DNA of 64,000 nucleotides from a phage, in the sequence record PV874203.1; one strand, given 5' to 3'. The notes beneath the pieces are model-generated. The model was not told where the DNA came from and made no database searches. It was given only the letters and a program-made list of their open reading frames with translations. How positions within the stretch are numbered: the stretch's first letter is position 1; the number at the start of each line of letters is the position of its first letter. A program made the translations under genes and the position numbers. Positions 2-52,736 of this stretch are shown here, one piece after another.

Positions 2-3000
2 GCTAACCCATTAGCTGCCGCCGCTATCATTGCAGGTCGTGAGACAGGTCGTGCATATGCAGACCAAACCCCTGAAGAGGGAGAAGATAAGTCTATTCTA
101 GATGCAGCCTTAGTTGGTGGTGCTAACTATGCGGCTCAGAGAATCCTTCCGGGTGCTGTTGGTACAGCTGAGTCCACACTTGGACGTATTGGTCAGAACG
201 TTGCTACTAACGCAGTGGCTGGTGCTAAAGGTGGTGCTCTTGTAGGTGCTGCTGAAGCTCAGAACAAGCATGGAGATGATACAACCTTTGCTAATGTATT
301 AGAGGGTGCTATCGAAGAAGGTGCTATGGGTGCTGCATTCGGTGGTGCAGTTGGTGGTGTTCATGGTTTGATTAGCCGTCCGGATTCTGCTGTCTTCAAG
401 AACACTCCAGAGTATGCGAAGACTGATATTGCTGCTGATGATGAACTGATTCGTAGTGCTAAGAATATTGATGAATTGAAAGAAGCTTACTCTAAAGCTG
501 AAACTGCTAACGCTGCTTCCGCTCTTAATCTTCTAGATGAGAATGGATTCCGTATCACAGATGCTGTTGCTGTAGATTCTCCTGCTGCCCAGCGTATTCT
601 TAATACAGACCAAGCTCGTGCTGAGAAAGCTGCTTCTGTTCAGAAAGAACATTCTAATATTCCTGGCCTCAATCCTTTGGCTTCTCCTGCTAAAGTTCGT
701 GGTAAAGCATTCGCTGATAACGAGCACAACCAGAAGCAAGCTGTTGCTATGAAAGATGCAATGGCTGATTACACAAAGGATAACACTAAAGCTCTTACAG
801 ATGTTCTGGATAATCTTGATCGTGAGTTAGTTTCTCTCCGAGCTTCTGGTGATTTTACTGGTAGTCCGATTGATATTAAGAATCGCACACAAGCTGATCG
901 TGACTTCATTGATGCTTACAAGACTTTCTATAATGAAGCAAACCGATTCAAAGCTCGTGATGGTGAAGACTTTAATAACTTTGTAGAGAAAGCTACTGAA
1001 CTACAGAAGATGGCTGACAATGTTTCTCCAGAGATGAAACAAGCTATTGGTGGGTTGAAGAAACTGAAAGGTATGCCTGAAGGTTTTAATCCTATCCAAG
1101 ACGCCTACACTCTGAACAACACAGCTAAGTTCATGAGCAACCAAGACCGTGGTTGGACTTCCCTTACTGATGATGGCTTCCGTGAGACTTCTTCTCCTAG
1201 TCTGGTTATGAACACCCTTGGTGCTGCTAAGTATGCTCTGAATCGCTTCTCTTCTCAGCGTGCTCGCTCTCAACGTGTTAAGCAACAAGAATCTAACAGT
1301 GAAGCTATCCGCTCTCTGGCTCGTGGTGATTTGGAAGTTGCTCGTGCTAAATCCACTGCTGATGAAGCTCGTGCTAAAATGGAAGAAGAACCAGTTGTTG
1401 ATGACATTAAATTTAAGACGCAAAATGACGTAGAAACCGAACCGGTTCGGGAGCCTTCTTCTAGTACTGTGACGGAAGAAAATCTTCCTTCTTCTGCTCC
1501 TCAAGAAACTCCTCTTACAGCTCGTGATTTAGTTGCGCAAAGACGTGCTATCCGTCAGGCTGAACAGCGTCGCGCTGAAGAAGAGGCAGCAGCTGCTCAA
1601 GAAGCTCCGGTCGAACAAGCTCCACAGGCTGAACCTCTCCCTGCTCGTAATCCTTTAGAGGAACGTCGTGCGATGGAACAGCAACGTGCTCAAGAAGAGG
1701 CCACACAGGCTCCAGAACCCACCGTAGAGGAACCAACAGTTAAAGCTGAGCCATTACCTGCTCGTGCTCCTAAAGCTCCTAAGGAAGCTGTACAGGACGT
1801 TAAACCGGCAAGTGGTGTAGAACGTTTAGCTGCTATGTCTAGTGCTGCTCGTCAGGCTACTAAAGATCGTGCAGAACGTTTTGCTCGTTCTCTGTATTCC
1901 AAGGCTGCTAAGGCTAAAGCTACTGCTGAAAACTTCTTGGCTTACAAGGGTGATCCTAAGGAACTGATGCGTCGCATTCGTCAGGAAGATAATGCTATCA
2001 ACACTGAACGTCATGAAGAAATGGCTCGTAACCAGTTAGCTTCTCAGCAAGGTATTGCTACTGCTAAGAACAACACTGTACGAACTAATTTTGCTGAATG
2101 GGTTAAGGAACGTGGTCTGCCAGAAGATATTGCTACTAAGGCATTACGTGCTGAAGAGAAAGGTTTAGGTGGGAACGTGACTAACTTGGATAGTTTGAAA
2201 CGTCGTGCTGAAAGGTTGTATCAGAAGCAGCGTGAGGCTGAGTTTGATAGACTGTACCAAGAAGCTCTGGAAGAGAACAAAGCTTTCGATAAGAAGGATG
2301 CTCCTAAACTGGTTGACCAGAAGAAAGAGCTTCAGTCTGAGATTGATACTTTGATTGATTCAGAACCTTTACGTCCTGCTCAGAAAGATGCTATGCGCAG
2401 GCTGATGAATGATTATGTAGATGGGAAGTTTAAATCTTCAGAGAAGGCTGGTAGGGAAGAGGCTTTGGAAGTTGGTCAGATGAAGGATATTTGGGATGGG
2501 TTCATTAACACCTATAACAGAGAAGTGAATGCCTTCAACAAAGCTAACAAGAACTCTCAATACGAAGCTGCTGCTAAACACTTGCAGGCTCGTGAAGAAC
2601 GTCTTGCTACTCTGAGAAATAAAGCTCAGGCTCGTTCAGATGCTAAAGCTGCTGTTGAAAATGAACGTAAAACTCTAGAGGCTATTGCAGCTCAGAAGAG
2701 TGAGATTGAGAAGATGATGGAAGGTTTACCTAAACCTGTTCGTGAGGCTCAGGAATCTCGTACATTGAAACAGTTGGCTGCTCACCATGATAAGAACTCT
2801 CCAGTTCCTCCAGAGAAGTTCCGTAGTTACATTGAACGTATCCATAACGCCGAGTCAGATTACCTTGATCGTCAGCGTCGTTTAACTGATGCAGAGGAAG
2901 ATGCTCGTCAGGCTAAGTGGAATAAGATGTATGAGCAAGCGGAAGAGATGGACCGTAAATTTGATATAGACAAAAGAGTTAAACGCAGTGAAGAGCTTAA

Positions 3001-4006
3001 AGCGGCTCAGAAGCGTGAGAATGATCTCATGGCAGTACAACGTCAACGTGACGACATTCATCGTCGCCTGATGCATACTTTGGAAGATAAAGGCATATCT
3101 AAAGAGGATGCTGAAGCATTTGCTGGTTCCTACATGGATAACCGTTATGCACTTCTTGATAAGCCTATGACTCCTACTGAACATCAGAATGCTCGTTCTC
3201 GTATCGAAGCTGATGTTGAGAAGTTTGCTAAGAAGTACGAATCAATGACTCCTATCGAGAAAGAGATTGTTAAGGTTACTGGAGATACTGAAGGTAAGCT
3301 TGATAACTTGGATGCGGATACTAGGAAGGCTATTGAGGAGGCTCAGAAGGTTGACTCTGATATTAAGAAATTGCAAGAGGAAGAGTTGGAGATGGAGAAG
3401 ATTCGTTCTGCTCTGCCTGATGATGAAAAATCTCAAGCAAATTCTGATATCTTGGAAAGTATCAAACAGCAGGAAGAAGTCTTTGCTGATAAAGTAGAGA
3501 AAGCTTTCTTGAGTGGGAAGAGCTTGGATGAGTTAGCTAGTGTGGCTGAAGTTTTAGACAGGGTTCATGGTGCAGATAAGGCTGGTAACAACCGTCGCTT
3601 TGTACGTGCATTGCAGACTGCTGCTGAAAACAAGAAGAAGTATGGTGATAATCCAGTAGCTTGGTTTAGTGCTGATGATTACTCTGCCATTGCTAAACTT
3701 GGCGCTTCTTCCGCAGGTGGTAACAAATCTAGAGCACTGGAGAAGATCTTTGGTTCTACAGCTGAACAGGCTAAGAGTAAGTTGCTTGGTAGGGATGATG
3801 TAGCGAAGATGAGACGTGTGATTGAAGAGAACCCTGATATTAAGATTCCTTCTTACAAGACAACGAATCGTACTGAGTACTTGCAGTTCTTGGAGAAGTT
3901 TAATGACGAAGGGAAGCCGAAGATTAAACGTGGCTCATTGTCAGAGAAGCTTGAACGCAGTAAGCGTCAATCGAGACTCCGTGTAAGAGTTCGACCTAAG
4001 GAGTGA
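2..4006 (+). CDS. Large virion-associated protein, 5'-partial (frame open from window start); Gly/Ala-rich N-terminal region then long charged helical region; putative internal virion/ejection protein or tape-measure-like protein
   Basis: Frame open from position 2 with no stop before 4006; first start codon in track at 215. N-terminus is GA-rich (GAKGGALVGAAEA, GAMGAAFGGAVGG), remainder is K/E/R/A-rich. Function inferred only from size, composition and position at the end of the late block. Confidence 0.6.
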   Translation, partial: ANPLAAAAIIAGRETGRAYADQTPEEGEDKSILDAALVGGANYAAQRILPGAVGTAESTLGRIGQNVATNAVAGAKGGALVGAAEAQNKHGDDTTFANVLEGAIEEGAMGAAFGGAVGGVHGLISRPDSAVFKNTPEYAKTDIAADDELIRSAKNIDELKEAYSKAETANAASALNLLDENGFRITDAVAVDSPAAQRILNTDQARAEKAASVQKEHSNIPGLNPLASPAKVRGKAFADNEHNQKQAVAMKDAMADYTKDNTKALTDVLDNLDRELVSLRASGDFTGSPIDIKNRTQADRDFIDAYKTFYNEANRFKARDGEDFNNFVEKATELQKMADNVSPEMKQAIGGLKKLKGMPEGFNPIQDAYTLNNTAKFMSNQDRGWTSLTDDGFRETSSPSLVMNTLGAAKYALNRFSSQRARSQRVKQQESNSEAIRSLARGDLEVARAKSTADEARAKMEEEPVVDDIKFKTQNDVETEPVREPSSSTVTEENLPSSAPQETPLTARDLVAQRRAIRQAEQRRAEEEAAAAQEAPVEQAPQAEPLPARNPLEERRAMEQQRAQEEATQAPEPTVEEPTVKAEPLPARAPKAPKEAVQDVKPASGVERLAAMSSAARQATKDRAERFARSLYSKAAKAKATAENFLAYKGDPKELMRRIRQEDNAINTERHEEMARNQLASQQGIATAKNNTVRTNFAEWVKERGLPEDIATKALRAEEKGLGGNVTNLDSLKRRAERLYQKQREAEFDRLYQEALEENKAFDKKDAPKLVDQKKELQSEIDTLIDSEPLRPAQKDAMRRLMNDYVDGKFKSSEKAGREEALEVGQMKDIWDGFINTYNREVNAFNKANKNSQYEAAAKHLQAREERLATLRNKAQARSDAKAAVENERKTLEAIAAQKSEIEKMMEGLPKPVREAQESRTLKQLAAHHDKNSPVPPEKFRSYIERIHNAESDYLDRQRRLTDAEEDARQAKWNKMYEQAEEMDRKFDIDKRVKRSEELKAAQKRENDLMAVQRQRDDIHRRLMHTLEDKGISKEDAEAFAGSYMDNRYALLDKPMTPTEHQNARSRIEADVEKFAKKYESMTPIEKEIVKVTGDTEGKLDNLDADTRKAIEEAQKVDSDIKKLQEEELEMEKIRSALPDDEKSQANSDILESIKQQEEVFADKVEKAFLSGKSLDELASVAEVLDRVHGADKAGNNRRFVRALQTAAENKKKYGDNPVAWFSADDYSAIAKLGASSAGGNKSRALEKIFGSTAEQAKSKLLGRDDVAKMRRVIEENPDIKIPSYKTTNRTEYLQFLEKFNDEGKPKIKRGSLSEKLERSKRQSRLRVRVRPKE

Positions 4007-14775: not shown

Positions 14776-14791
14776 TTTATACTCCTTTAAA

Positions 14792-15977: not shown

Positions 15978-16301
15978 TTACGATGAGCTTAAAGCTCCTT
16001 TTCGCTTAGCAGCACCAGCTGCTTTTCCAGCTCGATTACCACTTTTGCCGCCGTTTGAACGGTTTGAGCTGACTGATTCAATACGTAAGTTGCTTGACGC
16101 ATTAGAGCCTCCAGACTTGACAGCTCGTTTGTGTCCAACATCTTTACCTCTGACAGCAGCTTTTCCATCGCGCTTTTCAACGATGCGACGTGCACGGTGG
16201 CGCTGAGCATCTCCGCTCTTGCTCCCAACGCCTGTCTCACCACGGGCAATTGCGGTACGTCTTTCTTGTGCATAATCTCTCTTTCCTACATGATCTGCCA
16301 T
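15978..16301 (-). CDS. Hypothetical basic Gly/Ser/Arg/Lys-rich protein (possible nucleic-acid-binding)
   Basis: ATG with AAGGAG 6 nt upstream and the TAATGTATA motif about 40 nt upstream. An alternative overlapping frame (15989..16273) exists. Confidence 0.4.
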   Translation of the reverse strand: MADHVGKRDYAQERRTAIARGETGVGSKSGDAQRHRARRIVEKRDGKAAVRGKDVGHKRAVKSGGSNASSNLRIESVSSNRSNGGKSGNRAGKAAGAAKRKGALSSS

Positions 16302-18160: not shown

Positions 18161-18162
18161 GA

Positions 18163-32250: not shown

Positions 32251-32259
32251 GATAACCTC

Positions 32260-33066
32260 TTATGCTACCTGAAGGAGTTTGATCTGCTGGTCCGCTTCTT
32301 TAACGTTGTTGCCGTTAATGATTTCATGAAGCTTCTCAATCGGAAGGCGAGAGTGCAATGCCATCAGAGTGGACATATCACACTGCTGAACAACTTTGTC
32401 AACCTGATCATAAACAAACTTACGATTTTCACGATCACTAATCCAGAAGTTAGACAGTGAACGATATTCAATACCATAATCTTTATAACGGATTGCAGAC
32501 GCTTTACCGTAGAGTTCTTTACGGCGAGTATCTTTATCCATAATAACTGCTGGAAGGGACAGGAAGTAGTCACACAGCACACCCAACATCATCTGAGTTT
32601 GCAGGGTGATATCCAAAGCACCAACTACGCCAAGATGTACGTGACCGCCGGCAGTACGAAGTCCCTTATTCTGAGAAGTCGGGGATGGATTCTTCTGACC
32701 AGTGAAAGCGTTGAAATCAGGAGTACACCCGAAGATGAACGCTGATTCATTGAAAGTCTTCATCTCTTCTTCAGTGAAGATGTGAGAGCTAACACCCGGA
32801 GCTGCTTCCATGTCCAGTTTGTTCAGGACATTGTTGGTGAGATCGATACCACGTTGCATGTTATCGTTAAACGCTTCAAAACCGCTCTGTGGGTCGATAT
32901 CAAACTCAGCCAGTACGTTGTCCTCTTGAAGACGAACATCCTTAGCCAGAGTGATCTTATCGTCCTTAGAACAGCCTAACAGACCAGCCACAGAGGTGAT
33001 AATACCATTGCTGGTACGAACGAACATTTCAGGGTCAGAGCCAATAAGGAAAGCGCGCTTAGTCAT
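32260..33066 (-). CDS. Hypothetical protein, possibly a second GS-fold amidoligase-like enzyme (weak)
   Basis: LIGSDPEMF, SSHIF and GGHVHLGV are reminiscent of the E-x-E / H-x-H metal-site pattern. Confidence 0.45.
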   Translation of the reverse strand: MTKRAFLIGSDPEMFVRTSNGIITSVAGLLGCSKDDKITLAKDVRLQEDNVLAEFDIDPQSGFEAFNDNMQRGIDLTNNVLNKLDMEAAPGVSSHIFTEEEMKTFNESAFIFGCTPDFNAFTGQKNPSPTSQNKGLRTAGGHVHLGVVGALDITLQTQMMLGVLCDYFLSLPAVIMDKDTRRKELYGKASAIRYKDYGIEYRSLSNFWISDRENRKFVYDQVDKVVQQCDMSTLMALHSRLPIEKLHEIINGNNVKEADQQIKLLQVA

Positions 33067-34030
33067 TGTAATACTCCACTAATTCAGAAAAGAGAGATGA
33101 GATTGTGTTACCAACTTCTTCAGTAGTAAGGCCAGAGCTTGGGCCAGTACGCTGAATTAGTCGGGCTGTAAAGTTTTGTACTGTAATGTTTTCCAACTTA
33201 TTGTCTATTGCTTCACGTTTGTGACCATGACAGTTGGACCAGAGTTGTAACCACTCTGACATTGTTTGGTACTCGTCCGGGTCTTGATCTTTAGCTTGAG
33301 CAAAAGCAGTCAGAGCCTCTAGGTCGTGGTTTCGAACATAACCATTTTGGTTTCTACCTTCACCAAACATACCTTGCACCCACACCTGATCTGTATACTC
33401 ATCAGAGTCTACAACCAAAGGTAAGAATGCTGCTGCTGACATGTCACCATTAATGGCAACAGATGTACTTTCACTTGAGCTGTTAGCCCTTCCTCGTTGA
33501 GACCACCCACCGAAGAAGTCACGACCTAACCCAGCTAACACTAGAGCGATGCCGATGCGTTTACGCTTCAGCCACTCTTCCCTGTCTTCAATTCCTTCTG
33601 CTAGGAAATCCATTCCACGATACTGCCCTTCCAGAATACTACGGAAAAGCATAAGTCCTGTGAAGATCTGATCTGCTGGATGCTCACGGAGGTTGACAGC
33701 AACACTATTCGCTGAAGTGATTGTAAATACGTCACGATAGCAAGACATGGAGTTCATAATGTCTGCTGTTTCAACCAAGTTCTTTTCAATATCAGATGCA
33801 ACATGACCATGAAAAGAGTGAGTCCAGTAATTCAACATCTCCAATTGCAAGTTGATGTCACGGTTGAAGCGTCTATAACGTCCTTCTTCCGTGATAACTT
33901 CACCATTAATGTCACTTACGCATTGGCCTTGCATGTAGTTGTGGATACCGAAGCATCCACGACCTAAGAACTTCTGTTCCCCTAAATCTTGTTGAAGATT
34001 CAGAGGTACGATCGTTGTGGAGATTGACAT
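33059..34030 (-). CDS. Hypothetical protein
   Basis: 323-aa ORF. Confidence 0.5.
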   Translation of the reverse strand: MSISTTIVPLNLQQDLGEQKFLGRGCFGIHNYMQGQCVSDINGEVITEEGRYRRFNRDINLQLEMLNYWTHSFHGHVASDIEKNLVETADIMNSMSCYRDVFTITSANSVAVNLREHPADQIFTGLMLFRSILEGQYRGMDFLAEGIEDREEWLKRKRIGIALVLAGLGRDFFGGWSQRGRANSSSESTSVAINGDMSAAAFLPLVVDSDEYTDQVWVQGMFGEGRNQNGYVRNHDLEALTAFAQAKDQDPDEYQTMSEWLQLWSNCHGHKREAIDNKLENITVQNFTARLIQRTGPSSGLTTEEVGNTISSLFSELVEYYND

Positions 34031-35992: not shown

Positions 35993-36457
35993 TTACTCTA
36001 TCCTAACTGAAGGGCAGTATTTCTCTTTCTTGCTGCGATACATCACAACAATCCAGTTTGAATCACGACGCTCTTTCTTACGTCGTTTCTTTTCAGCACG
36101 AGTTTCATATGTGCTAGTTCTGTGGTCACGGTATATTCCACGAAGTTCATAAAATGCCCAACCACCACCAAACACTACACCAGCCAAAGCAGCCAAAGAC
36201 AAGGCACCAAGAGCAGGGGCAGTGAACCATGTCCACCAATTGAATGACAAAAAATTCTCATGCCCAAGTAAAGAGCCACCAATCATGGACAGTGCAGCGT
36301 ATACAACCCCTAACAGCAGCGTCAGTGCAATGAAGTGCATCACTGTACGCCAGAAGTATTCACAGAAGTTGGTCATGTTGTCCCAATGATAATTGGGTAG
36401 GCTTGACATGGCTTTGTTGAACTTGTGCAACCAGCCGTTCTTGTTAACCTTGATCAT
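35993..36457 (-). CDS. Hypothetical membrane protein (two predicted TM helices, basic C-terminus)
   Basis: Hydrophobic segments HFIALTLLLGVVYAALSMIGGSLLG and FTAPALGALSLAALAGVVFGGGWAF. Confidence 0.5.
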   Translation of the reverse strand: MIKVNKNGWLHKFNKAMSSLPNYHWDNMTNFCEYFWRTVMHFIALTLLLGVVYAALSMIGGSLLGHENFLSFNWWTWFTAPALGALSLAALAGVVFGGGWAFYELRGIYRDHRTSTYETRAEKKRRKKERRDSNWIVVMYRSKKEKYCPSVRIE

Positions 36458-36690
36458 TACTCACCTTTCTTGGCACGATCTTTGGCAGTTTTGCCAGTGC
36501 GGATACGATGGGAAACGTTAACCAGAGTGCCACCATCAACTACGGTAACACTCTTGTTTTTAGCCAGATCGAACACAGTTTTCTCCGTGCCACCCAAGCG
36601 AATTTGCTTAGGCTCACTGAAGGTTTGGGTTGATTTGGATTGGAACTGGAACGGTTGACGAATTGCATCGATTGCGCTTACTTTAGACAT
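36457..36690 (-). CDS. Hypothetical protein
   Basis: 77-aa ORF. Confidence 0.45.
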   Translation of the reverse strand: MSKVSAIDAIRQPFQFQSKSTQTFSEPKQIRLGGTEKTVFDLAKNKSVTVVDGGTLVNVSHRIRTGKTAKDRAKKGE

Positions 36691-36921
36691 AGGGGAAATT
36701 CCTTAAAAAGTTATGGCTGCGTAGAGGGAATTCCCTACGCAAATTGGGCCGCCCACAGAGAGGCGTCATAGTACTAAAAGGAGGAGAGAAGAGGGCTTAT
36801 TTAGCTACCTTTTTCTGTCCGTTTACGAACCAGATAATTGAACCGTCAGGCTGTCGTTGCCCGAAGCCTTTCTGGTTAATCATATCGTCATAAGAATATG
36901 CTTTGATTCTCATTTGTTTTC

Positions 36922-37164
36922 CTATGGAGTTAAGATAATTTCAGCCTTACTAAACTTCTCACCAACTTCAAGAGTATCAGCAACAGGACGGGGCACACCT
37001 GTACCCAAACAAACAGCCCTTCGATACCCTCCAGTCACAGGCATCATCAAATAGATGACCTGATTATCATCTTCTTTTAAAGTAAAGATATCAGCGATCG
37101 ATAGATCTTTAACAAAGAGTTTCTTTTCTTCTTCATGATGAACTTTGATATGTATTGTGCTCAT
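36922..37164 (-). CDS. Small protein, member of a paralogous family
   Basis: Shares the D(L/V)xxG(D/S)(V/I)F ... NL(x)TG pattern with at least 7 other small ORFs. Confidence 0.5.
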   Translation of the reverse strand: MSTIHIKVHHEEEKKLFVKDLSIADIFTLKEDDNQVIYLMMPVTGGYRRAVCLGTGVPRPVADTLEVGEKFSKAEIILTP

Positions 37165-37166
37165 AC

Positions 37167-37412
37167 CTACTCCTGAACAACTGACATACGAATCACTTCA
37201 ACAGGTGCATCACTTTTCATAACACCCAGTACGCCAGTAAGAAGATTAACGGTCGTAATCCAACCTTCTTCGACAGAGATTTTGTTGGATACATTATTAA
37301 CACGGATGTAATACTGAGGGGATGCTGTTCCTCTCTGAACTACGAAAGGGTTTCCGGGAATAATTGTAGCCAGTGAAACAGTGTTATCTTTAATCTTTGG
37401 GATAATCTTCAT
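37167..37412 (-). CDS. Small protein, probable member of the same paralogous family
   Basis: Similar size and LATIIPGNPF...LLTGV pattern. Confidence 0.45.
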   Translation of the reverse strand: MKIIPKIKDNTVSLATIIPGNPFVVQRGTASPQYYIRVNNVSNKISVEEGWITTVNLLTGVLGVMKSDAPVEVIRMSVVQE

Positions 37413-37420
37413 ATTGATTC

Positions 37421-37744
37421 CTATTTAAGTTTTAGGCTAATATTAAGGTGCATACATGCCCTGTTCTGTACAGCAGCATAACTTCTACCGAGCATGTCAG
37501 CCATTCTCTGAATAGACATGAACCCAGCATTACGGATAAGGAACTGGTCTTCTTCTTTAGACCACTTGACTCGGATTACAGCTCTAGAAATACCGAACTT
37601 AGTGCAAGCTGTATTAACTGCATTCTCCGTTACATTCATAATCTGAGCAACTTCTTGAACCGAGTACTCTTTGATTAGTCTCCGAAGATTTTCAATCTGC
37701 ATCGGAGTCCATATAGTTCTTCGAGCTTTCATTTTACCACCCAT
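37421..37744 (-). CDS. Putative DNA-binding protein with two tandem HTH-like repeats
   Basis: Two approx 50-aa repeats each with W...E...L...S..E.A..M........R. Confidence 0.45.
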   Translation of the reverse strand: MGGKMKARRTIWTPMQIENLRRLIKEYSVQEVAQIMNVTENAVNTACTKFGISRAVIRVKWSKEEDQFLIRNAGFMSIQRMADMLGRSYAAVQNRACMHLNISLKLK

Positions 37745-37955
37745 GTCGACTTTTAACTAACACACCATCAATTATCAGATAATGTAAATGTCTTATCATA
37801 TCTGAAGACAGATCTCCATGAGCGCTATTCCACTGAAGGAAGTTCATATCCTTCCAATCTGTGTAGTGCTTTTTGGCTTCTTCCTCTATCTGACTAAGAG
37901 TTACCCTTCTGAAAGGATATGGACTATACTTAATAAGTGTTTCACATTTTGTCAT
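37734..37955 (-). CDS. Hypothetical protein
   Basis: 73-aa ORF. Confidence 0.4.
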   Translation of the reverse strand: MTKCETLIKYSPYPFRRVTLSQIEEEAKKHYTDWKDMNFLQWNSAHGDLSSDMIRHLHYLIIDGVLVKSRHGW

Positions 37956-38245
37956 ATATCCTCCAATTAAATGTTTATGTAAGACTTGCTTAGATAAAGA
38001 TTCAATAAAATAGGGGGAGGGGACGAATCCTCCCTTATCCTATTAATTAATATTGCATGTAAGATCTAACAATCGGTTGCCTTTGTAGGAATAAGCGTTA
38101 TGCCAATCCAGCACTAAACTCCCGCCCCCTTAGTGGGCTGGGTTTATAAAGGGTAACGCCCTTATGGGCTAGTTACATGAATGTTAGTTTGATAGGGGAT
38201 CTGAAGTCCTATCTCAAAGGACTCTCGTAAGAATCCTTCACGATA

Positions 38246-38503
38246 TTACTTAAAGATGAAATGTATAACTGCATCATATGCTTTAGACAGAAGCCAACCT
38301 ATCGGATAACAGACTCCTGCCAGTATTGAGATGGGCCATAACATAATTAAGATCACAACCATCATCTCATCAGGTTCAGAGCTGGTAGACCCTGTTGTAA
38401 TGACCCCTTTTAGTAGACCTTTCTTGTATAGCAGTTTCAGCACTAAAACAGAAAGGAATACTCCAATAAAGTAAACTGAGATAAAAATATCAAGTAAACC
38501 CAT
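38246..38503 (-). CDS. Hypothetical small membrane protein (holin-like topology, unproven)
   Basis: 85 aa with 2-3 hydrophobic helices. Confidence 0.4.
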   Translation of the reverse strand: MGLLDIFISVYFIGVFLSVLVLKLLYKKGLLKGVITTGSTSSEPDEMMVVILIMLWPISILAGVCYPIGWLLSKAYDAVIHFIFK

Positions 38504-38654
38504 TTAATCACCTATTACTTATTCAACTTTCGTCTGCTATCTCGCCAAGCCAACCAAGTGTAGGTTTTCAGCTCTTCAAAGTCTTCTGGAGAGAATAGAT
38601 ATTCTTTGAAGGTATTTCCAAACCACTTTAAAAATTCTTCAGTCATAAAACCTC

Positions 38655-38828
38655 TTAACAAGACTGGTCACATGGCTGATCACCACATGTTTTACAAATC
38701 ACTGGTGAATAACTACAGGAAGGATATACTGACACACCGTCAAACGTCTCACACCCACAGTCAGGGCATGTACCATTGGATTCCATGTCATAATCATCAT
38801 CCACTTCACCACCACCATAACAGCTCAT
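38655..38828 (-). CDS. Hypothetical small Cys-rich protein (57 aa)
   Basis: Hand-translated ORF MSCYGGGEVDDDY...CPDCGCETF...CKTCGDQPCDQSC with AAGGAG upstream. Confidence 0.35.
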   Translation of the reverse strand: MSCYGGGEVDDDYDMESNGTCPDCGCETFDGVSVYPSCSYSPVICKTCGDQPCDQSC

Positions 38829-38837
38829 ATGAACTCC

Positions 38838-39059
38838 TTAGTAAACTAAACCTATAGCCTTTGCATCAGGCTGAGGGACTACTTTTGCATTAGGGCGATA
38901 ACCATCCACTGAACCATTCCAAAGGTTGACACAGGTGATATACCCATCGTTCAAGTAGTCTGTTTTAATCCAGAAGTGTTTATCGTGACCAAAGATACTT
39001 CCTTTTGGCAGTGTGGACAATTCAACAGTTTTAAGGGATTGTTTAGAATCTAATTTCAT
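38838..39059 (-). CDS. Small protein, member of paralogous family
   Basis: LSTLPKGSIFGHDKHFWIKTDYLNDGYITCVNLWNGSV fits the family pattern. Confidence 0.5.
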   Translation of the reverse strand: MKLDSKQSLKTVELSTLPKGSIFGHDKHFWIKTDYLNDGYITCVNLWNGSVDGYRPNAKVVPQPDAKAIGLVY

Positions 39060-39068
39060 ATAAGTTCC

Positions 39069-39266
39069 TTAATACACCAAGCCATGTAAGAGAAACACTC
39101 TCTTAGTTAACTCTGCTTTAGCTCTGTAATAAGCCTTAGAACCTAACAGGCGGCGTTTAACAAAGAACTTAATGTCATTGCTAACATCTTGTATTAAACG
39201 CTCCTGTACAGCTTCTGAGGAGCTATTAATTGAATCAATTAACACCTTTGTAGATGTATAATTCAT
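39069..39266 (-). CDS. Hypothetical protein
   Basis: 65-aa ORF. Confidence 0.35.
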   Translation of the reverse strand: MNYTSTKVLIDSINSSSEAVQERLIQDVSNDIKFFVKRRLLGSKAYYRAKAELTKRVFLLHGLVY

Positions 39267-39267
39267 A

Positions 39268-39567
39268 TCACCACTCCTTACCGGTTGTTGTTACAGAGCC
39301 ACCACACCACAACGCTGTATCAATCACAACATTATCTGGCGTAGACTTCTCTTCGTTGATAGAAGGGTTAGCATTGGAGCAGGTTGCTCCGTTCCAGCGC
39401 ATATCGATTTCACCAGAAGGAACCTTCTCACCTTTATGCCAGCGAGAAACACAAACACCTTCCACTGCTACTGCACACCATCCATCAGGACGGCTCTGTA
39501 CGCAGCCTGTAAGGGCCACACAGACAAGGAAGATACAGATTAAGGATATTACACCACCCCAACTCAT
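39268..39567 (-). CDS. Predicted lipoprotein (possible superinfection-exclusion / receptor-masking protein)
   Basis: Signal peptide with lipobox LTGC, then Cys-rich mature domain. Function inferred by analogy to phage lipoproteins such as T5 Llp. Confidence 0.5.
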   Translation of the reverse strand: MSWGGVISLICIFLVCVALTGCVQSRPDGWCAVAVEGVCVSRWHKGEKVPSGEIDMRWNGATCSNANPSINEEKSTPDNVVIDTALWCGGSVTTTGKEW

Positions 39568-39586
39568 AACTATCTCCTACGTTGAT

Positions 39587-39662
39587 TGGTGCACCCTACA
39601 GGACTCGAACCTGTAACCAACGACTTAGAAGGTCGCTGCTCTGTCCATTGAGCTAAGGGTGC
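39587..39662 (-). tRNA. tRNA-Arg (anticodon UCU), 76 nt with encoded CCA
   Basis: Hand-folded cloverleaf: acceptor GCACCCT/AGGGTGC, D-arm GCTC/GAGC, anticodon stem GCGAC/GTCGT with loop CTTCTAA, T-arm ACAGG/CCTGT with loop TTCGAGT, 3' ACCA. Confidence 0.8.
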
Positions 39663-39671
39663 TATATTTAT

Positions 39672-39980
39672 TTATAAGGAGAAAGACTTCTTACAATCCT
39701 TCTCTTCAAAAGTGTAGTAGCCTGTTGTATCAGGGAAGTAGGCATACTTTGTTTCTTTGCCATCAATAGCCATGACACGATTACCAGAAGTTGTTTCTAC
39801 AAACAGAAGCCCATCTCTTACCATACCATGAGATTCTTTGATACCAGTTAAGCTATGCTCTTTAAGAGTGCATTGCTGAACACTCTGATACTTAACTCCA
39901 ATCTCTGCACTATTAACAGAGATGATACCAATGGTTGTCATTAGTAGTAAGGTTGAGATGATAAAATGCTTTTGTTTCAC
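39672..39980 (-). CDS. Hypothetical secreted protein
   Basis: N-terminal signal-peptide-like segment (MKQKHFIISTLLLMTTIGIISVNSA). Confidence 0.45.
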   Translation of the reverse strand: MKQKHFIISTLLLMTTIGIISVNSAEIGVKYQSVQQCTLKEHSLTGIKESHGMVRDGLLFVETTSGNRVMAIDGKETKYAYFPDTTGYYTFEEKDCKKSFSL

Positions 39981-39998
39981 ATTAACCTCTGGATTTAT

Positions 39999-40208
39999 TT
40001 AACTGAAGATACGCAAGGCCACATCGTGATAGATATGACCGGGGACTTTGTGCTGTTCTATTTTCAAACAGCGTTTACAGACACGAGATACACGAGATTC
40101 TTTTCTCTCGACCGGAGTGTCTTTAGCGTGAGTAATATGTAAGTTTTCAGTGATCACCCACTCATGTTTACATCCAGAATCTTCGGGCTTTTTCTTACGA
40201 AAGAACAT
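39999..40208 (-). CDS. Hypothetical Cys-containing protein
   Basis: 69-aa ORF with CKHEW ... CKRC pattern. Confidence 0.4.
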   Translation of the reverse strand: MFFRKKKPEDSGCKHEWVITENLHITHAKDTPVERKESRVSRVCKRCLKIEQHKVPGHIYHDVALRIFS

Positions 40209-40217
40209 AACACCCCC

Positions 40218-40379
40218 TTAGATTACATCACGATGACTAACATCACCACACACCTTACACTGAATAACGTAACGTGTGCCCTTGTCATTATTCCCATCTG
40301 AATCTGTATAGACCAGAGGGCGAGTATTAATAATCTTCCAATCATGACAATGAAAGACACGCTTTAGCCACTTGAACAT
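40218..40379 (-). CDS. Hypothetical zinc-ribbon protein
   Basis: Track ORF trimmed to internal Met (MFKWLKRVFHCHDW...CKVCGD) to avoid overlap. Confidence 0.35.
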   Translation of the reverse strand: MFKWLKRVFHCHDWKIINTRPLVYTDSDGNNDKGTRYVIQCKVCGDVSHRDVI

Positions 40380-40386
40380 ATTAACC

Positions 40387-40638
40387 TCAAGCACAAGCAG
40401 GGAGAGTGATGATTTTATGCTTACCATCAAACTCTCCAAATAAACCTAAGAATGTAGGACTGTAAGTGCCAGTACAAACAAACTCATCAAACAGTGCGTT
40501 ATAGCTAGGCTTAATCTTCCAAGCCCATACATAACCCATCTTGTCAATTGCAATGTAACGAGTGTTCAGAGGAACAGTCATCATCACACCATCAACTTCA
40601 ATCACTTTAGTTATTGGTGCAGCTTGGAAGTTTTTCAT
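40387..40638 (-). CDS. Hypothetical protein
   Basis: 83-aa ORF. Confidence 0.4.
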   Translation of the reverse strand: MKNFQAAPITKVIEVDGVMMTVPLNTRYIAIDKMGYVWAWKIKPSYNALFDEFVCTGTYSPTFLGLFGEFDGKHKIITLPACA

Positions 40639-40865
40639 TACATTTCCTCTAACTTAAGAGTTGCTTTATATTCTTTAACCGGAGCGTCTTCAGGGAAAGA
40701 AAGTCTTTGAGAGGGTTGGGGTAATCGTACAGAAAACCCGCCACCAATCTTCATGTAGAAAGATTCTTGACTGGCAAGTTCTGTGTTGAATGTGAAAATA
40801 GAACCAATGCTCAAGTCTCGGAAAGTCTTTTGCTTTGGTTTAGTCGAGTCTAAAACGATATTCAT
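40638..40865 (-). CDS. Small protein, probable member of paralogous family
   Basis: FRDLSIGSIFTF pattern. Confidence 0.45.
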   Translation of the reverse strand: MNIVLDSTKPKQKTFRDLSIGSIFTFNTELASQESFYMKIGGGFSVRLPQPSQRLSFPEDAPVKEYKATLKLEEM

Positions 40866-41038
40866 ACTTTACCTTTGATAAAAATGTCATTACCACAGAC
40901 ACAGCATGAACGAACAACAGTAGCGCCACGCTGAACGATACGAACCTCTTCTTTAACCAGATTAACACGAGCACCACAGCAAGGAGAGTTAACATAAGAG
41001 TAACCAGCTTGCGTATTCTTGATTGTTTGCTTAGACAT
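40862..41038 (-). CDS. Hypothetical zinc-ribbon protein (58 aa)
   Basis: Hand-translated ORF with CC...CCVCG; start overlaps the upstream stop (ATGTCTAA). Confidence 0.35.
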   Translation of the reverse strand: MSKQTIKNTQAGYSYVNSPCCGARVNLVKEEVRIVQRGATVVRSCCVCGNDIFIKGKV

Positions 41039-41489
41039 TTGATTCGAGATCTCTTAGTTGTTCAGCCAATTGTTCGCACTCATTGATGCAGAACTCTTCT
41101 GTTCTTGGAACCCCATTAGGGTTGAACCGTGTCTTATCACACGCATGGGCACAATCAAACCCGATTGTATTTAAACCACCCATCTCTTCAAGAGTGTCTT
41201 GCCATGTTACACCACCGTGAACTCCAACATACCAAACAACCGCTTCCTCTCCGTTATATCCGGTGAAGTTTTTATGCTTTAAGCTGTCTGGTAGCTCTAC
41301 ATATCCACAAAGATGGGAGTCGTTCATGTGAATAATCACAGCACGAAGCCCTGATTTAGTTACCCAACCTTTAACCATGCGTCTCATATAAGCACCTCTT
41401 GTTAGTTTAAGTAAGAGTTGTCCCTTAATTAAAACAACAAAGGCCACCCGATTGGGCAGCCTTTTATCTATTAACTGTTGTATGTCCAA
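41031..41489 (-). CDS. Hypothetical protein
   Basis: 152-aa ORF; true start may be an internal Met. Confidence 0.45.
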   Translation of the reverse strand: MDIQQLIDKRLPNRVAFVVLIKGQLLLKLTRGAYMRRMVKGWVTKSGLRAVIIHMNDSHLCGYVELPDSLKHKNFTGYNGEEAVVWYVGVHGGVTWQDTLEEMGGLNTIGFDCAHACDKTRFNPNGVPRTEEFCINECEQLAEQLRDLESNV

Positions 41490-41969
41490 TTACCTTGCTT
41501 GTTACGGATAGCTGACATTGCATGAAGCCAGAAGCCTTCCAGTTTCAGAGCACCGTTAGCTACTGCATCCATACGTTCAGGGCGGTTCATAAGTTTGGTT
41601 GACACTTTCATACCTATATCTCTTTGTTAGTGGAGGCATTATTGCCAGTTGATATAAGGGATAGCCCTAGTCAGGAGACTAATTCTGACCGCGTACTCAT
41701 TGCCGACCTTCTCTGCCTAAGAGTTCAGGTTCTAGAGCTATCTCTTATTCCAACTGGTGAAGACTCCCTACCCCTAGGAAGTCTCCTGAATCCCAAACCG
41801 ATACGTACCCCTACATATCAGAAAGTCTTTCGAAAATTAACAGGTTTTAGTCTAACACCGGATGTTCGAGCAAGCTCTCCCTAGCGGTGTGGCATATGCC
41901 TGAGTTAATAAGTTAATGAGGAACACCCTCACATAGCCCTCTGATAGACACAAGGGCTATAAGTCGGTG

Positions 41970-42188
41970 TTACTTTTGAGTCAAACACAGATCAGGACGG
42001 GGCATAACAGTGGTTGATAGACCAAAGACTTCAACATAACCAGTGCCCAGATTGGCAGCCTTACGTAAACCGTCAGGGGTTTTATCTTCTAGCATCAGCC
42101 AGAAACGTTTATCGTAAGAGAAAACATCACCACCCTTAACGTCTTCTGCATTTGCATATTTAGGATAATCAACTACTTTAATTTCCAT
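41970..42188 (-). CDS. Small protein, member of paralogous family
   Basis: AEDVKGGDVFSYDKRFW...NLGTGYV. Confidence 0.5.
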   Translation of the reverse strand: MEIKVVDYPKYANAEDVKGGDVFSYDKRFWLMLEDKTPDGLRKAANLGTGYVEVFGLSTTVMPRPDLCLTQK

Positions 42189-42198
42189 TTACTTACCT

Positions 42199-42417
42199 TT
42201 ACTGATAGATGGAGAGGTGGATAAGTTTATTCACATGAGCGAAGTTAGGTAGGATTTGCATCTCATTGTTGAAGATATTAAAACAACGAACCCCACCCTC
42301 TACAGCATAAGCAGATTTCTGAAACAGACTACCTCCCCACACAAATACATCATGTGTTTCAAGAGATCGTAACTGAACAGCCTCGTCAACAACCTTCTTT
42401 TCAATGTTCATACTCAC
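42199..42417 (-). CDS. Small hypothetical protein in the paralog array
   Basis: 72-aa ORF inside the array; family membership weak. Confidence 0.4.
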   Translation of the reverse strand: MSMNIEKKVVDEAVQLRSLETHDVFVWGGSLFQKSAYAVEGGVRCFNIFNNEMQILPNFAHVNKLIHLSIYQ

Positions 42418-42668
42418 CCTTGATTAGTAATCACTACATCGTGAAACATGATAACACGGGTTGTAGAGTGTATCTTAATAACTTGCTTACTTCTCAGATT
42501 AAGAACAACGCAACCTCCATCAGAAGGCTTAGTCTCTTCTATCTGAGAAGTAAATAACTGAACAACCATGTAGAAATCTGCACGGGTATCCCTGATTTGG
42601 AATACATCTCCAAGTTTAAGATCACTGACATAAAGAGTTGGTTCATTTACCTTCAAATTAATCTTCAT
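42414..42668 (-). CDS. Small protein, member of paralogous family
   Basis: VSDLKLGDVFQIRD...VLNLRSKQV. Confidence 0.5.
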   Translation of the reverse strand: MKINLKVNEPTLYVSDLKLGDVFQIRDTRADFYMVVQLFTSQIEETKPSDGGCVVLNLRSKQVIKIHSTTRVIMFHDVVITNQG

Positions 42669-42894
42669 CCTTAGCCCCTATGTTAGTTATGTGGAGATCA
42701 CTACGTACTTGGCAGACTTCATCCCGTTTAAAAGGCATGAGCTTTCCAGTTACCACATCAACACAGTTTACATAGTTATCTGCGTATAGTGTGTCGGTTC
42801 TAATATAAAGAGAGTCTTTACGCTCAAATAGAACCCCCGGCTTCATATTATTTAATCGAAGCATTGTACGATCGGATTTAATATTAACTTTCAC
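42658..42894 (-). CDS. Small protein, member of paralogous family
   Basis: LNNMKPGVLFERKD...VDVVTGKL. Confidence 0.5.
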   Translation of the reverse strand: MKVNIKSDRTMLRLNNMKPGVLFERKDSLYIRTDTLYADNYVNCVDVVTGKLMPFKRDEVCQVRSDLHITNIGAKDED

Positions 42895-42896
42895 TG

Positions 42897-43154
42897 TTAA
42901 TCCGCCTTATTCGTGAGTCGAGCGTTAACTTTCTTAACAACTTCATGAGTGAAACCATCAGAAATCACACCAGTTGAAAGGTTAATATATTTTCTCTGAT
43001 CTCCTGATCTGTTATAAGCACTTGAGGACATATAATAATCACTCAGGTTCAGAGGGAACTGGAACACATCACCTGATTCTAAATCCCCAAGAGTCAAAAC
43101 CTTTGGGGCGTTGTTCATATCAATTATCACTGTTAATCTCCTGCTGCTTAGCAA
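42897..43154 (-). CDS. Small protein, member of paralogous family
   Basis: LGDLESGDVFQF...INLSTGVI. Confidence 0.5.
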   Translation of the reverse strand: MLSSRRLTVIIDMNNAPKVLTLGDLESGDVFQFPLNLSDYYMSSSAYNRSGDQRKYINLSTGVISDGFTHEVVKKVNARLTNKAD

Positions 43155-43416
43155 TAGCTACTCGCAAGTCTTCATTAGCACGAGCAAGGCGTAACACTTC
43201 ATGGTTGAGGTTCTGAAGACGCTTGTTTCTGTCTTCAACTTGCATAATAAGATCGTTAAGAGTTTCTTTAACTTTCTCATTGTACATCTCATCCACTCGG
43301 ACTAGAGATTTATACATTCTCTCCCAGCTTGCTGCTTTGTTTCTTAGAATAATAAATCCTATAACGCTGATAGTTAAACAGCTTACAAAAAGGAATTTAT
43401 ATACTTCTAAAGTCAT
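43120..43416 (-). CDS. Hypothetical membrane-anchored coiled-coil protein
   Basis: N-terminal hydrophobic helix then charged helical region. Confidence 0.4.
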   Translation of the reverse strand: MTLEVYKFLFVSCLTISVIGFIILRNKAASWERMYKSLVRVDEMYNEKVKETLNDLIMQVEDRNKRLQNLNHEVLRLARANEDLRVAIAKQQEINSDN

Positions 43417-43615
43417 ATTATTTACCCTTTATCAGAGATTAAAAGTAATATTATTTAAGTAAGTTATATTTAGTAAACTTATTTTCTAAGAAATTTTCAA
43501 AGGGTCTATATACAGAGCATTACCCATAGTCCCAGAATACTACCATCTTTTTCAATAAATTTACTAAGTGGTTGGTTTATAAAGGAATTTAGTTTGTCAA
43601 ATCTGGCACTAGTGA

Positions 43616-44005
43616 TTATTCCCTAGAGCTATTATCGAACACTAAATCACCACAATACATAGGATTGGCATACCATTTTGGCACCCCTTCGCTCTTACTC
43701 TGAAAGTAAGTCCCACTATACAGCGGAACATAATTCTTCTTAAGGGCACGTTTAGCCAGCCGCTCGCTTTCTCTAATGGCTTGCTTAGTCATCGGATTTT
43801 TATCACGAATCAGCTTTACATAACGTTTATAAGGTTTCTCCTGTTTTAATAGTACCGGAATCCACTCAAACTGGTTCTTTTGTCTTATCACCTGTTCAGC
43901 GGTCAGTTTTCGTTGAGCCATTCTATTTATCACGGTATCCGCAACCATAGCTTTACATGCGGTTGGCTGATTCCCTGCCTCATAATAAATAGTCAATGTC
44001 AACAT
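43616..44005 (-). CDS. Putative cell wall hydrolase (SleB/Hydrolase_2-like); candidate endolysin
   Basis: YYEAGNQ...AMVADTVINRM...NQFEW pattern resembles the Hydrolase_2 family. Confidence 0.5.
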   Translation of the reverse strand: MLTLTIYYEAGNQPTACKAMVADTVINRMAQRKLTAEQVIRQKNQFEWIPVLLKQEKPYKRYVKLIRDKNPMTKQAIRESERLAKRALKKNYVPLYSGTYFQSKSEGVPKWYANPMYCGDLVFDNSSRE

Positions 44006-44052
44006 TAGCTGGGCCGTTGTTATCAGAACTTGCTACCTCCTGTTTTACGGGC

Positions 44053-44080
44053 ATAAAAAAGCCCCAGCCGTAGCCGGGGC
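44053..44080 (-). terminator. Rho-independent terminator
   Basis: GC-rich hairpin (GCCCCAGCCGTAGCCGGGGC) followed by a 6-T run on the minus strand. Confidence 0.5.
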
Positions 44081-44140
44081 AAACCTGAAAGCAACATATG
44101 ACCGTTGCTATAAATACACTCGCAAATGCACTTACAGCAA

Positions 44141-44163
44141 CGCAAAAAGCCGCTCAAAGGCGG
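44141..44163 (-). terminator. Rho-independent terminator (tandem with previous)
   Basis: Hairpin GCCGC-CTTTGA-GCGGC followed by a 5-T run on the minus strand. Confidence 0.5.
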
Positions 44164-44245
44164 CTATGCGGAAGCTTCAAATGGGGAGAGGGCACGACGC
44201 GACAGAAAGAGCGTCATAGTACTAAAAGAGGGGGATATATTCCTA

Positions 44246-44689
44246 CTATTTAACCCTTGCCTCTTTGATGGGGTCAATGTATTTCTCAACGCCCCACTTG
44301 TGTTTACTATCTGCATAGAAAACATCAGGAGCACACTGGCTTGTCTTAGGAAAAGCCTGCGGGTCTTTCGTGCTACCCTTAAACTTCTGTTTACCACGGG
44401 TGCGACCATTACAGAAGATTTCTAACTTCTTCTCCTCTTCTGTTTTAGCTCCCCCGCTCTTTAACAAAGAACGTTTATGATCAGCTAACAACAACGCATC
44501 AGCACGATGGACACGATGGCCTACACGTTTTGCCACACTAGAAGGGATATGAGATTCAGCCTCAGCTTTTGCAGCACGGCGTTTTAAACTGCGCTTACTA
44601 ATGTAATTGGTTGCCTTCGGCTTCCCTTTCTCCAGTTCAGAGATAGAAAAACAACGCCCGCCCTTCATGCTGATTTTAGATTTAGTCAC
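44246..44689 (-). CDS. Hypothetical basic protein
   Basis: 147-aa Lys/Arg-rich ORF. Confidence 0.45.
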   Translation of the reverse strand: MTKSKISMKGGRCFSISELEKGKPKATNYISKRSLKRRAAKAEAESHIPSSVAKRVGHRVHRADALLLADHKRSLLKSGGAKTEEEKKLEIFCNGRTRGKQKFKGSTKDPQAFPKTSQCAPDVFYADSKHKWGVEKYIDPIKEARVK

Positions 44690-47242: not shown

Positions 47243-47868
47243 TTAAAGAGCGGTAAATCTGTCAGCGTGCTTTCTCACGCTACGCAACTGTTAGCCGTTG
47301 TTACGCTTTTCACTTAAGCGGTGATTTGCTTCAGTGATGCTCATTATGGACCATGATGTTTTTGCTGTCAACCGCTTTTTTAATCTTTTTCGTCGTTCCC
47401 GCTATTGGGAGGATATATCAACCCGCTTTATTGGGTTGAAGATTAAGCGATGAGGCTTAACCCATGATTCATATTGTTAAAGAGCGTTTAGCCTTTTATA
47501 GTGTCTGCTAATCACTGCATCATTAAAGGCTTACTTATTCATTAACGGGGCGCCTAATCCCGAACTACCCGCTGCACTATGTGCCACCTTTCCCGCGATA
47601 CGTTGATTTAGGAACTAGTTAACGTTGTTTTGTTAACTTGTGGTTAGTATGAACTACCTTAACCACGTTTGCAACCCTTTTTTATCATCTTCTTTTATTC
47701 TTTTCCCTTATCTCGCTTGAATCTATGCGAAAGGGCAAGATGATAAGTTTTTAAAGAGCGGGATGCTTTAAGTCATCGCTGACTATGCTCACTATATATC
47801 AGGCTATTTTCGGTGTCAATACTCTTTTTAAGAATATTTTCACTTTCTAGCCTGATTTTTAAAGAGCG
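47243..47868 (+). repeat. Four dispersed copies of TTAAAGAGCG(G) in an ORF-poor 1.7-kb region
   Basis: Copies at 47243, 47477, 47751 and 47859, in two subtypes (ATTGTTAAAGAGCG x2, TTTTTAAAGAGCGGG x2). Confidence 0.5.
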
Positions 47869-52411: not shown

Positions 52412-52529
52412 TTAAAGGAAGCTGTATGGATGCTGGATTCCTAAGTTAACCAGATATGCAGCGAATAAGAGAGGGGGAGGTTCTTTGACGAAGGGACTTT
52501 CCCTTTTCTATTTTTAAACTGGAGGAAGT

Positions 52530-52736
52530 ATGTCATTAGATAAACAAATTTATGAAGCTCTAACTGGTAACAATCTTAGTGTAGAGGAAAAGAAAGCACT
52601 ATTGAATATGTTGAAAGAGCGTGACCAATGGAGGAAGTATAATAGGATTTTGTCTTTCAAGGCGTATGACTTCCAAAAGAAATTTTATGCAGCAGGATTG
52701 AAGCATCGCTTTAGGTTCTTGTGTGCGGCTAACCGT
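52530..52736 (+). CDS. Terminase large subunit (T7 gp19-like), exon 1, ending inside the Walker A motif
   Basis: GGAGG RBS, ATG; translation ends ...YDFQKKFYAAGLKHRFRFLCAANR then an in-frame TAA. Confidence 0.65.

Follow-up and report, generated by a model that had tools for sequence, protein, structure and literature searches.

Site-specific nicks have been known in phage virion DNA since the 1960s (T5), and those of the TACTRTGAC type are among them (PMC3517423, PMC11780129). In Pseudomonas phage tf, single-strand interruptions characterized by run-off sequencing and primer extension (14 nicks) share the consensus 5'-TACT/RTGMC-3', and TACTATGAC is the main predicted nick site of phages LUZ24 and PaP3 (PMC3517423). 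In Pseudomonas phage Rembedalsseter, WACTRTGAC is found at 13 strand-specific drops of nanopore coverage, and the survey of Dougherty et al. 2025 reported no enrichment of this motif outside a cluster of 61 Pseudomonas phages (PMC11780129). Here, we analysed a stretch of 64,000 nucleotides of phage DNA (sequence record PV874203.1, hereafter called the window), in which a short, almost identical segment is present in two intergenic regions of a minus-strand gene block. Our analyses indicate that these segments are most likely conserved nicking sites of the type described above, a reading that we favour, with moderate confidence, over a palindromic operator or an RNA leader.

The phage of the window is a Kuravirus, i.e., a phiEco32-like coliphage, with 92-94% identity to SU10, phiEc_1 and approximately 100 other records. 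The 18-mer GCGTCATAGTACTAAAAG occurs exactly twice on its plus strand, at 36763-36780 and 44211-44228 (hereafter S1 and S2). With up to three mismatches allowed, 0.06 occurrences are expected by chance, and three matches were obtained in none of 100 shuffled sequences. The third match in the window, a weaker one with three mismatches at 1458-1475, is a genuine third copy of the conserved core (S3). Since the genes flanking S1 and S2, which belong to the early gene block, are on the minus strand, the sense reading of the 18-mer is CTTTTAGTACTATGACGC. The preliminary description of this region had reported the two near-identical segments, their location in transcribed spacers of the minus-strand block and a GC-rich hairpin beside each of them. 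All three observations were borne out: both sites are intergenic with the motif on the sense strand, and the neighbouring structures are a hairpin at 36719-36740 for S1 and terminators at 44165-44148 and 44080-44061 for S2. A protein-anchored search of IMG/VR gave just five near-identical loci, and GenBank phage records were used in its place. The spacers of S1 and S2 are 97-100% conserved across most Kuravirus records, with two copies in most of them; the segments are conserved in about 100 related phage records and are not confined to the two sites of the window.

S1, S2 and S3 are three exact matches to the published TACTRTGMC and WACTRTGAC motifs, and all three read GTACTRTGACG. The resemblance to the tf and LUZ24-like sites (Glukhov et al. 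2012, PMC3517423) covers the 9-mer, including the tolerated A/G, and extends to the bases around it. The nine sites of LUZ24 have G at position -1 in all cases and G at position +10 in eight, which yields an 11-mer, GTACTATGACG, identical to S1 and S2, and the annotated nick sites of tf mostly have G at +10 as well. The phage groups are themselves related. In tblastn searches with the window's open reading frames (ORFs) against LUZ24 and tf, amino acid identities were 45-47% for the primase-helicase, 35-39% for the DNA polymerase and 38-40% for TerL, and the three phages also have in common both exonucleases, the portal and capsid proteins and a four-gene amidoligase cluster. The sites of tf and LUZ24-like phages are likewise concentrated in the early region, with several of them intergenic and beside GC-rich inverted repeats. 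The differences are that the window phage has 3 sites as opposed to 9-14 per genome, that its host is Escherichia coli, and that its nicks are ones that we infer.

The amidoligase cluster, at 26784-33078 on the minus strand of the window, encodes ATP-grasp, glutamine amidotransferase, amidoligase and COOH-NH2 ligase proteins and is common to LUZ24, tf, 7-11, A24, 3H10_20 and LAh_9. The phages that harbour it are the same set as the carriers of the nick-motif family (see below), a co-distribution that may simply reflect shared ancestry.

With the Rembedalsseter cluster, the window phage shares the motif, which is found mainly on the coding strand and frequently where genes start or adjoin (PMC11780129). 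What differs is that the motif family described here is found in enterobacterial and Aeromonas phages, and that it forms a low-copy, conserved set in Kuravirus. Like the nicks of T5/BF23 and of phiKMV-like phages, those predicted here would be site-specific, ligatable interruptions in the virion DNA of lytic phages with terminal repeats, but the recognition sequences of T5 (R/GCGCRGG) and phiKMV (CGACxxxxxCCTA/CTCCGG) and the phages themselves are unrelated (as quoted in PMC3517423). Two further resemblances were considered and rejected. The nick site of pMV158-type rolling-circle replicons is TACTACG/AC; the tf consensus fits the window sites exactly instead, and no Rep or HUH gene turned up among the proteins examined. 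A T7-type primase site (GTC on the complementary strand) would place the primer start 3 nt away from the mapped nick position.

As near-identical genomes say little about which bases matter, we compared diverged ones, namely Suseptimavirus (ECBP2, EK010 and Bas86), MLP3 and KBNP1711. The sequence TACT(A/G)TGACG is unchanged in every S1 and S2 copy compared, with 5' flanks that vary (TTTTAG, TCAAC, GCAAC, TTAGC or TTAAC), and the 25 nt upstream of the S2 core cannot be aligned between lineages. Orthologues of both sites are present in all nine early-region loci (16-25 kb each), where they are the sole matches to [AT]ACTRTGMC. At S3, TACTGTGAC is invariant in six of six genomes, for a local coding-sequence identity of 73-79%. 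In phiEco32 (bases 2100-77554), exactly three sites were found, at 27941 on the plus strand and at 63070 and 70592 on the minus strand, all of them orthologous to those of the window. Base -1 shifts in concert: it is G in Kuravirus and C in Suseptimavirus at all three sites, and C at both S1 and S2 of KBNP1711, as expected if the sites co-evolve with one recognition protein. TACTRTGACG, a 10-mer whose definition comes from other phages, has three occurrences in the window for 0.21 expected, and this number was reached in none of 100 shuffles.

We then looked for the motif in further podophages that possess the genes common to the window, LUZ24 and tf. Salmonella phage 7-11 harbours 13 sites for 2.1 expected (none of 200 shuffles), with a 12:1 distribution between strands. 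Twelve of them are on the strand coding for the early and middle genes, and seven are located within 12 kb of the right end. Their extended consensus is AC-TACTGTGAC-G, with G at +10 in 12 of 13 sites. In this genome, AACTACTGTGACG is the top over-represented strand-specific word, and pieces of the consensus are the most over-represented strand-specific 10-mers. Proteus phage 3H10_20 has eight TACTRTGMC sites (7:1 between strands) and ten WACTRTGMC sites, eight of the latter on the minus strand and five of the extended form; it also has three copies of a variant, TACGGTGAC, alongside TACTRTGAC sites. The same variant shows an 8:1 strand distribution in Cronobacter phage A24. Aeromonas phage LAh_9 has no TACTRTGMC site for 3.2 expected, and the strand-specific words that rank highest in its genome spell TTACTACGGTGAC, which differs by one base; at least eight copies of (TT)AC-TACGGTGAC-G were found, in every case on the coding strand of the surrounding genes. 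The variant copies of LAh_9, A24 and 3H10_20 point to a motif family with at least two specificities. Most motif copies of 7-11 and tf fall inside genes. Judging from these sequence matches, the carriers of TAC(T)RTGAC(G) constitute a broad podophage clade that includes LUZ24-like and tf-like phages, 7-11, Proteus Privateervirus and Kuravirus/Suseptimavirus.

These comparisons bear on the proposal of the preliminary description that the segment, which contains the palindrome TAGTACTA, may be a binding site. We considered this proposal in the form of a palindromic operator recognized by a dimeric regulator of the phage. All three copies in Kuravirus do contain the 8-bp palindrome. It is nevertheless lost from the Suseptimavirus and KBNP1711 orthologues, which read TAGCTACTA, TAACTACTA or CAACTACTG, while the asymmetric TACTRTGACG is invariant and the consensus of 7-11 is not palindromic. 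We consider an operator of this kind hardly credible. A binding site in the loose sense still fits, as the element resembles a recognition site for a protein on DNA. The element noticed at the outset is thus real and conserved, and the wrong feature within it had been singled out.

Taken together, these data make it probable that the window motif belongs to the TACT/RTGAC nick-site family, an assignment in which we have good confidence. That the virion DNA of the window phage is nicked at these sites is a further step, for which the balance of the evidence is slightly favourable. The best-supported description of the sites is that of low-copy, positionally conserved, nick-associated recognition sites embedded at early-operon junctions. 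Several observations weigh against nicking. The bare 9-mer is not enriched in the window, with three sites for 1.7-2.1 expected. The sites of tf and LUZ24 are on one strand, whereas those of the window phage are distributed as two on the minus and one on the plus strand, always on the coding strand; a few sites on the opposite DNA strand are also found in relatives, namely 7-11 and LAh_9. The coding-strand bias is also compatible with an RNA motif. S1 and S2 further have features that go beyond the needs of a bare nickase site, namely a CU-rich tract, a hairpin with a GACGC arm and adjacent terminators, which leave room for an additional or different role at the RNA level. Finally, the literature searched yielded no report that ties nicks to phiEco32-like phages and no physical evidence of nicks in Kuravirus.

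The features of the three sites and of the candidate nickase are collected in Table 1. S1, which is 7.4 kb further along the early block than S2, is flanked by a 38-codon ORF (36913..36797, phi32_94 homologue) and the phi32_93 homologue (36457..36690). The order around it is a conserved CU-rich tract, the motif, a weak hairpin, a 22-nt GC-rich hairpin and the start of the phi32_93 homologue. At S2, the 18-mer begins 18 nt, and the core 24 nt, past the stop codon of the phi32_120 homologue (44246..44689); the 3' half of the motif takes part in an 8-bp hairpin (44218-44193), which is followed after approximately 30 nt by the terminators t1 and t2 and then by the phi32_117 homologue. S3 is located inside a large virion-protein gene (ORF 215..4006, plus strand), where it is read in frame as T-V-T. 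In all three cases, the motif-bearing strand is the coding (non-template) one for the genes at that place.

Table 1. Features of the conserved sites, their surroundings and the candidate nickase in the window
Feature	Position	Strand	Remarks
S1 core TACTATGACG	36764..36773	-	9-mer 36765-36773; predicted nick T36770/A36769 (TACT/ATGAC); invariant in 6 aligned genomes, flanks vary
S2 core TACTATGACG	44212..44221	-	9-mer 44213-44221; predicted nick T44218/A44217; invariant with R = A or G
S3 TACTGTGACG	1465..1474	+	9-mer 1465-1473; predicted nick 1468/1469; coding strand of phi32_26 homologue
18-nt segment common to S1 and S2	36763..36780	-	sense CTTTTAGTACTATGACGC; additional CTTTTAG particular to Kuravirus lineage
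CU-rich tract CCCTCTTCTCTCCTCC	36781..36796	-	upstream of S1; kept in Kuravirus and Suseptimavirus, not in KBNP1711
S1 proximal hairpin CGCCU/GGGCG	36750..36765	-	predicted; 5' arm overlaps motif end; 421/1000 shuffled tails fold equally well
GC-rich hairpin, core 36719-36740 GCGTAGGGAATTCCCTCTACGC	36717..36742	-	hairpin of the preliminary description; upstream of phi32_93 homologue start at 36690
S2 proximal hairpin UAUGACGC / loop UCUUUCUGUC / GCGUCGUG	44193..44218	-	5' arm = motif 3' half; 18/1000 shuffled tails fold equally well
Intrinsic terminator t1, AGCCGCCTTTGAGCGGCT + T run	44143..44165 (hairpin 44165-44148)	-	~30 nt after S2 hairpin; invariant across lineages
Intrinsic terminator t2, GCCCCGGCTACGGCTGGGGC + T6	44055..44080 (hairpin 44080-44061)	-	second of tandem pair
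Candidate nickase, 107-aa HNH-like protein	15981..16301	-	phi32_58 homologue, PHROG 4590

The gene content differs beside both sites. In the corresponding region (44006-44245), the window phage lacks phi32_119 and phi32_118, both of which are found between t2 and phi32_117 in phiEco32 (17583-18617 of locus L001), and an extra gene of 414 nt is present right after S1 in Suseptimavirus; S1 and S2 are thus both at mosaic junctions. The phi32_119 homologues have collagen-like GIDGKD tandem repeats, which split the assembly of FS2B into two records. We discarded the idea that this break between two contigs near S2 represents a nick, because it falls in the collagen-like repeats of gp119 and is an assembly artefact. 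The 77-residue phi32_93 homologue downstream of S1 (36460-36690, minus strand) has homologues with 50-62% identity in unrelated myophages of approximately 145 kb that infect Klebsiella, Salmonella, Cronobacter and Erwinia.

The proximal hairpins were judged by folding each variant against controls with shuffled tails, because the variable loops could not be aligned by MAFFT for covariation analyses. A hairpin with GACGC(C) as its 5' arm and a CU-rich loop is predicted in nine of the ten S1 and S2 variants, with loops that vary and a 3' arm that is retained. For the Suseptimavirus version of S2, none of 1,000 shuffled tails fold equally well; the S2 of KBNP1711 is devoid of this hairpin. This structure is one argument for the main alternative to nicking, namely that the motif and the hairpin with its CU-rich loop form a cis-acting RNA element of the early transcripts. 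Such an element would govern RNA processing or stability, or would be an antitermination signal like nut or put that allows RNA polymerase to get past the terminators immediately downstream. The location of both sites on the sense strand of transcribed spacers is in keeping with such a role, as is that of S2 approximately 30 nt ahead of two tandem intrinsic terminators, and S2 includes CGCUCUUU, which resembles boxA. Paired, similar elements of early operons upstream of terminators are also what is seen with lambda nut, rrn boxA and HK022 put.

Several findings argue against an RNA element. Its only universally conserved part is the 10-mer, as KBNP1711 S2 has no hairpin and the S1-type stems are no better than those of shuffled sequences. 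The boxA-like string changes to CGUUUCUCU and CGCCUCUCU in other copies, so that neither it nor the hairpin is conserved in orthologues, unlike in the nut, boxA and put systems, and there is no structural likeness to put RNAs. Moreover, S3 is conserved within a coding region with no terminator nearby. A search of the whole window with Rfam at the gathering threshold detected just a tRNA and a group I intron, and the homologous motif has been linked experimentally to DNA nicks in relatives. An RNA element would also leave unexplained why the motif occurs so abundantly inside genes of relatives and why an asymmetric 10-mer is invariant. For the conserved RNA leader envisaged in the preliminary description, the evidence tips neither way: the proximal hairpin surpasses shuffled controls solely in its S2 type, there is no Rfam match, and the third copy is inside a coding region. 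We regard an RNA-level role as unlikely in place of nicking; S1 and S2 might have such a role in addition.

Much better boxA copies are present beside the early promoters, the usual place for antitermination signals. CGCTCTTTAA occurs exactly four times on the minus strand (47243-47252, 47477-47486, 47751-47760 and 47859-47868) for 0.13 expected for this 10-mer, and two of these copies extend to CGCTCTTTAACAA. The sequence is very close to the boxA of the E. coli rrn operons and of lambda. The copies share their spacer with strong sigma-70-like early promoters (47819-47791 and 47371-47343). We rejected the boxA/nut reading of CGCUCUUU at S2 because it is not conserved in orthologues and better copies exist elsewhere. 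The copies at 47243-47868 suggest that Nus factors mediate antitermination in the early operon, a conventional mechanism that would account for transcription beyond the tandem terminators t1 and t2 (44165-44055).

Transcription initiation at the sites was also considered. TACTAT could be a -10 element for an RNA of approximately 60-70 nt with a 5' hairpin, ending at t1 in the case of S2, or for a transcript of the downstream genes. Both TACTAT and TACTGT have the A-11 and T-7 that matter most in a -10 element, and an RNA initiated there would begin with the hairpin and, at S2, run into t1. Nevertheless, neither a -35 element nor an extended -10 TG was found at any copy. A sigma-70 promoter, defined by -35 and -10 elements with a 16-18 bp spacing or by an extended -10, was found neither at S1 or S2 nor at their orthologues, and the sigma-70 scan called neither site. 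Sigma-70, sigma-32, sigma-E and sigma-54 readings, assessed by eye and by scan, were all rejected for want of a consistent -35/-10 pair. In phiEco32, the promoters dependent on the phage sigma factor gp36 have tAATGTAtA 6-8 bp upstream of the start, and there are six of them, before genes 6, 13, 26, 40, 58 and 68 (PMC8948821, PMC4331800). The sites do not align with this consensus on either strand, and S1 and S2 do not figure in the curated promoter list of SU10. Given in addition the location of most copies of 7-11 and tf inside genes, a promoter is very unlikely.

The RTG of the motif might alternatively serve as the start codon of tiny peptides, since ATG or GTG opens ORFs of 12-29 codons there (MTLFLS..., MTPLC...). 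The variants from ATG to GTG preserve a start codon, and the RTG of the motif is the annotated start codon of gp138 and gp089 in 7-11, of sci1, sci4 and sci11 (tf_04, tf_15 and tf_41) in tf and of gp47 in LUZ24. Against this, there is no Shine-Dalgarno sequence upstream, and neither the sequence nor the length of the peptides is conserved beyond the motif nucleotides, the conservation being at the nucleotide level. We give this explanation very little weight, about as little as the operator.

BLAST comparisons among the window, LUZ24, tf and 7-11 revealed no dedicated endonuclease in common besides the replication exonucleases and TerL. They do have one small protein in common, the phi32_58 homologue (15981-16301 in the window). 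This family is 55-67% identical across these phages, above the conservation of the DNA polymerase, and its members were found in 247 phage records, from phages of Pseudomonas, Escherichia, Aeromonas, Proteus, Salmonella, Cronobacter and Vibrio. A phi32_58 homologue is encoded in all seven genomes examined and in every carrier of the motif family found, including LAh_9 with its variant motif. This co-occurrence is within one clade and is not proof of the enzyme.

Aligning the family members revealed a putative HNH-type core, VDHKxxVKxGGSNxxSNLRVRSxxxN, in which H57, G64, G65, N71, L72 and N80 are invariant, and 16 of 23 family members weakly match the Pfam HNH signature. A sequence-profile search of the PDB with the family gave no match to any solved structure. 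The predicted model of the window protein best resembles the HNH proteins of Geobacter (Gme HNH, 4h9d) and phage GVE2 (5h0o), and I-HmuI (1u3e). The candidate appears to share its HNH core and, according to the model, its best-matching fold with these small nicking endonucleases, and differs from them by its lack of zinc-binding cysteines and of a detectable sequence match. In phiEco32, gene 58 is directly behind a gp36-dependent promoter (PMC4331800). We hypothesize that this HNH-like protein is the nickase, for which it is the most plausible candidate.

In the window, an HNH_3 homing-endonuclease-like ORF (12600-13025) separates two parts of the DNA polymerase gene (13057-14829 and 12327-12479, minus strand), an arrangement (12327-14829) that resembles an insertion of the intron or intein type. 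On the plus strand, a group I intron (Rfam RF00028, 74.6 bits) is present at 52734-53006, just upstream of the TerL ORF. The latter also appears to be split, as 52518-52736 and 53466-54890 both match the TerL of 7-11.

If tf and Rembedalsseter are taken as models, the strand with the motif would be cut between TACT and RTGAC by a site-specific nickase that the phage itself encodes. Cutting would take place late in infection, so that the packaged virion DNA would have ligatable single-strand interruptions. They would be located after the first early operon and before two terminators (S2), further along the early block (S1) and in a late virion-protein gene (S3), and might play a part in the mechanics of packaging or ejection, or in recombination. 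More broadly, we tentatively propose, as a scenario that is possible rather than probable, that a podophage clade infecting Pseudomonas, Salmonella, Proteus, Cronobacter, Aeromonas and E. coli shares one nicking system, made of the motif AC/G-TAC[T/G]RTGAC-G and an HNH nickase of approximately 100 residues from the phi32_58 family. Their specificities would have co-evolved, with a T to G change at position 4 in Lahexavirus/Crifsvirus and a different base at -1 between Kuravirus and Suseptimavirus. Kuraviruses would have a minimal version with three sites, two of them in hairpin/terminator junctions of the early operon.

Should the three sites of Kuravirus prove to be genuine nick sites, the phenomenon would extend from the Pseudomonas cluster to well-studied coliphages (phiEco32) and to therapy candidates such as ES17 and SU10. 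In practical terms, nicks affect nanopore sequencing, the prediction of termini and the handling of the DNA of these phages. Comparative genomics would also have reduced the candidates for the nickase to a single small HNH-like protein that is highly conserved. As the sites number only three and E. coli genetics is available, all of them could be mutated in one phage, which would provide a genetically tractable model to address the purpose of nicks in phage genomes.

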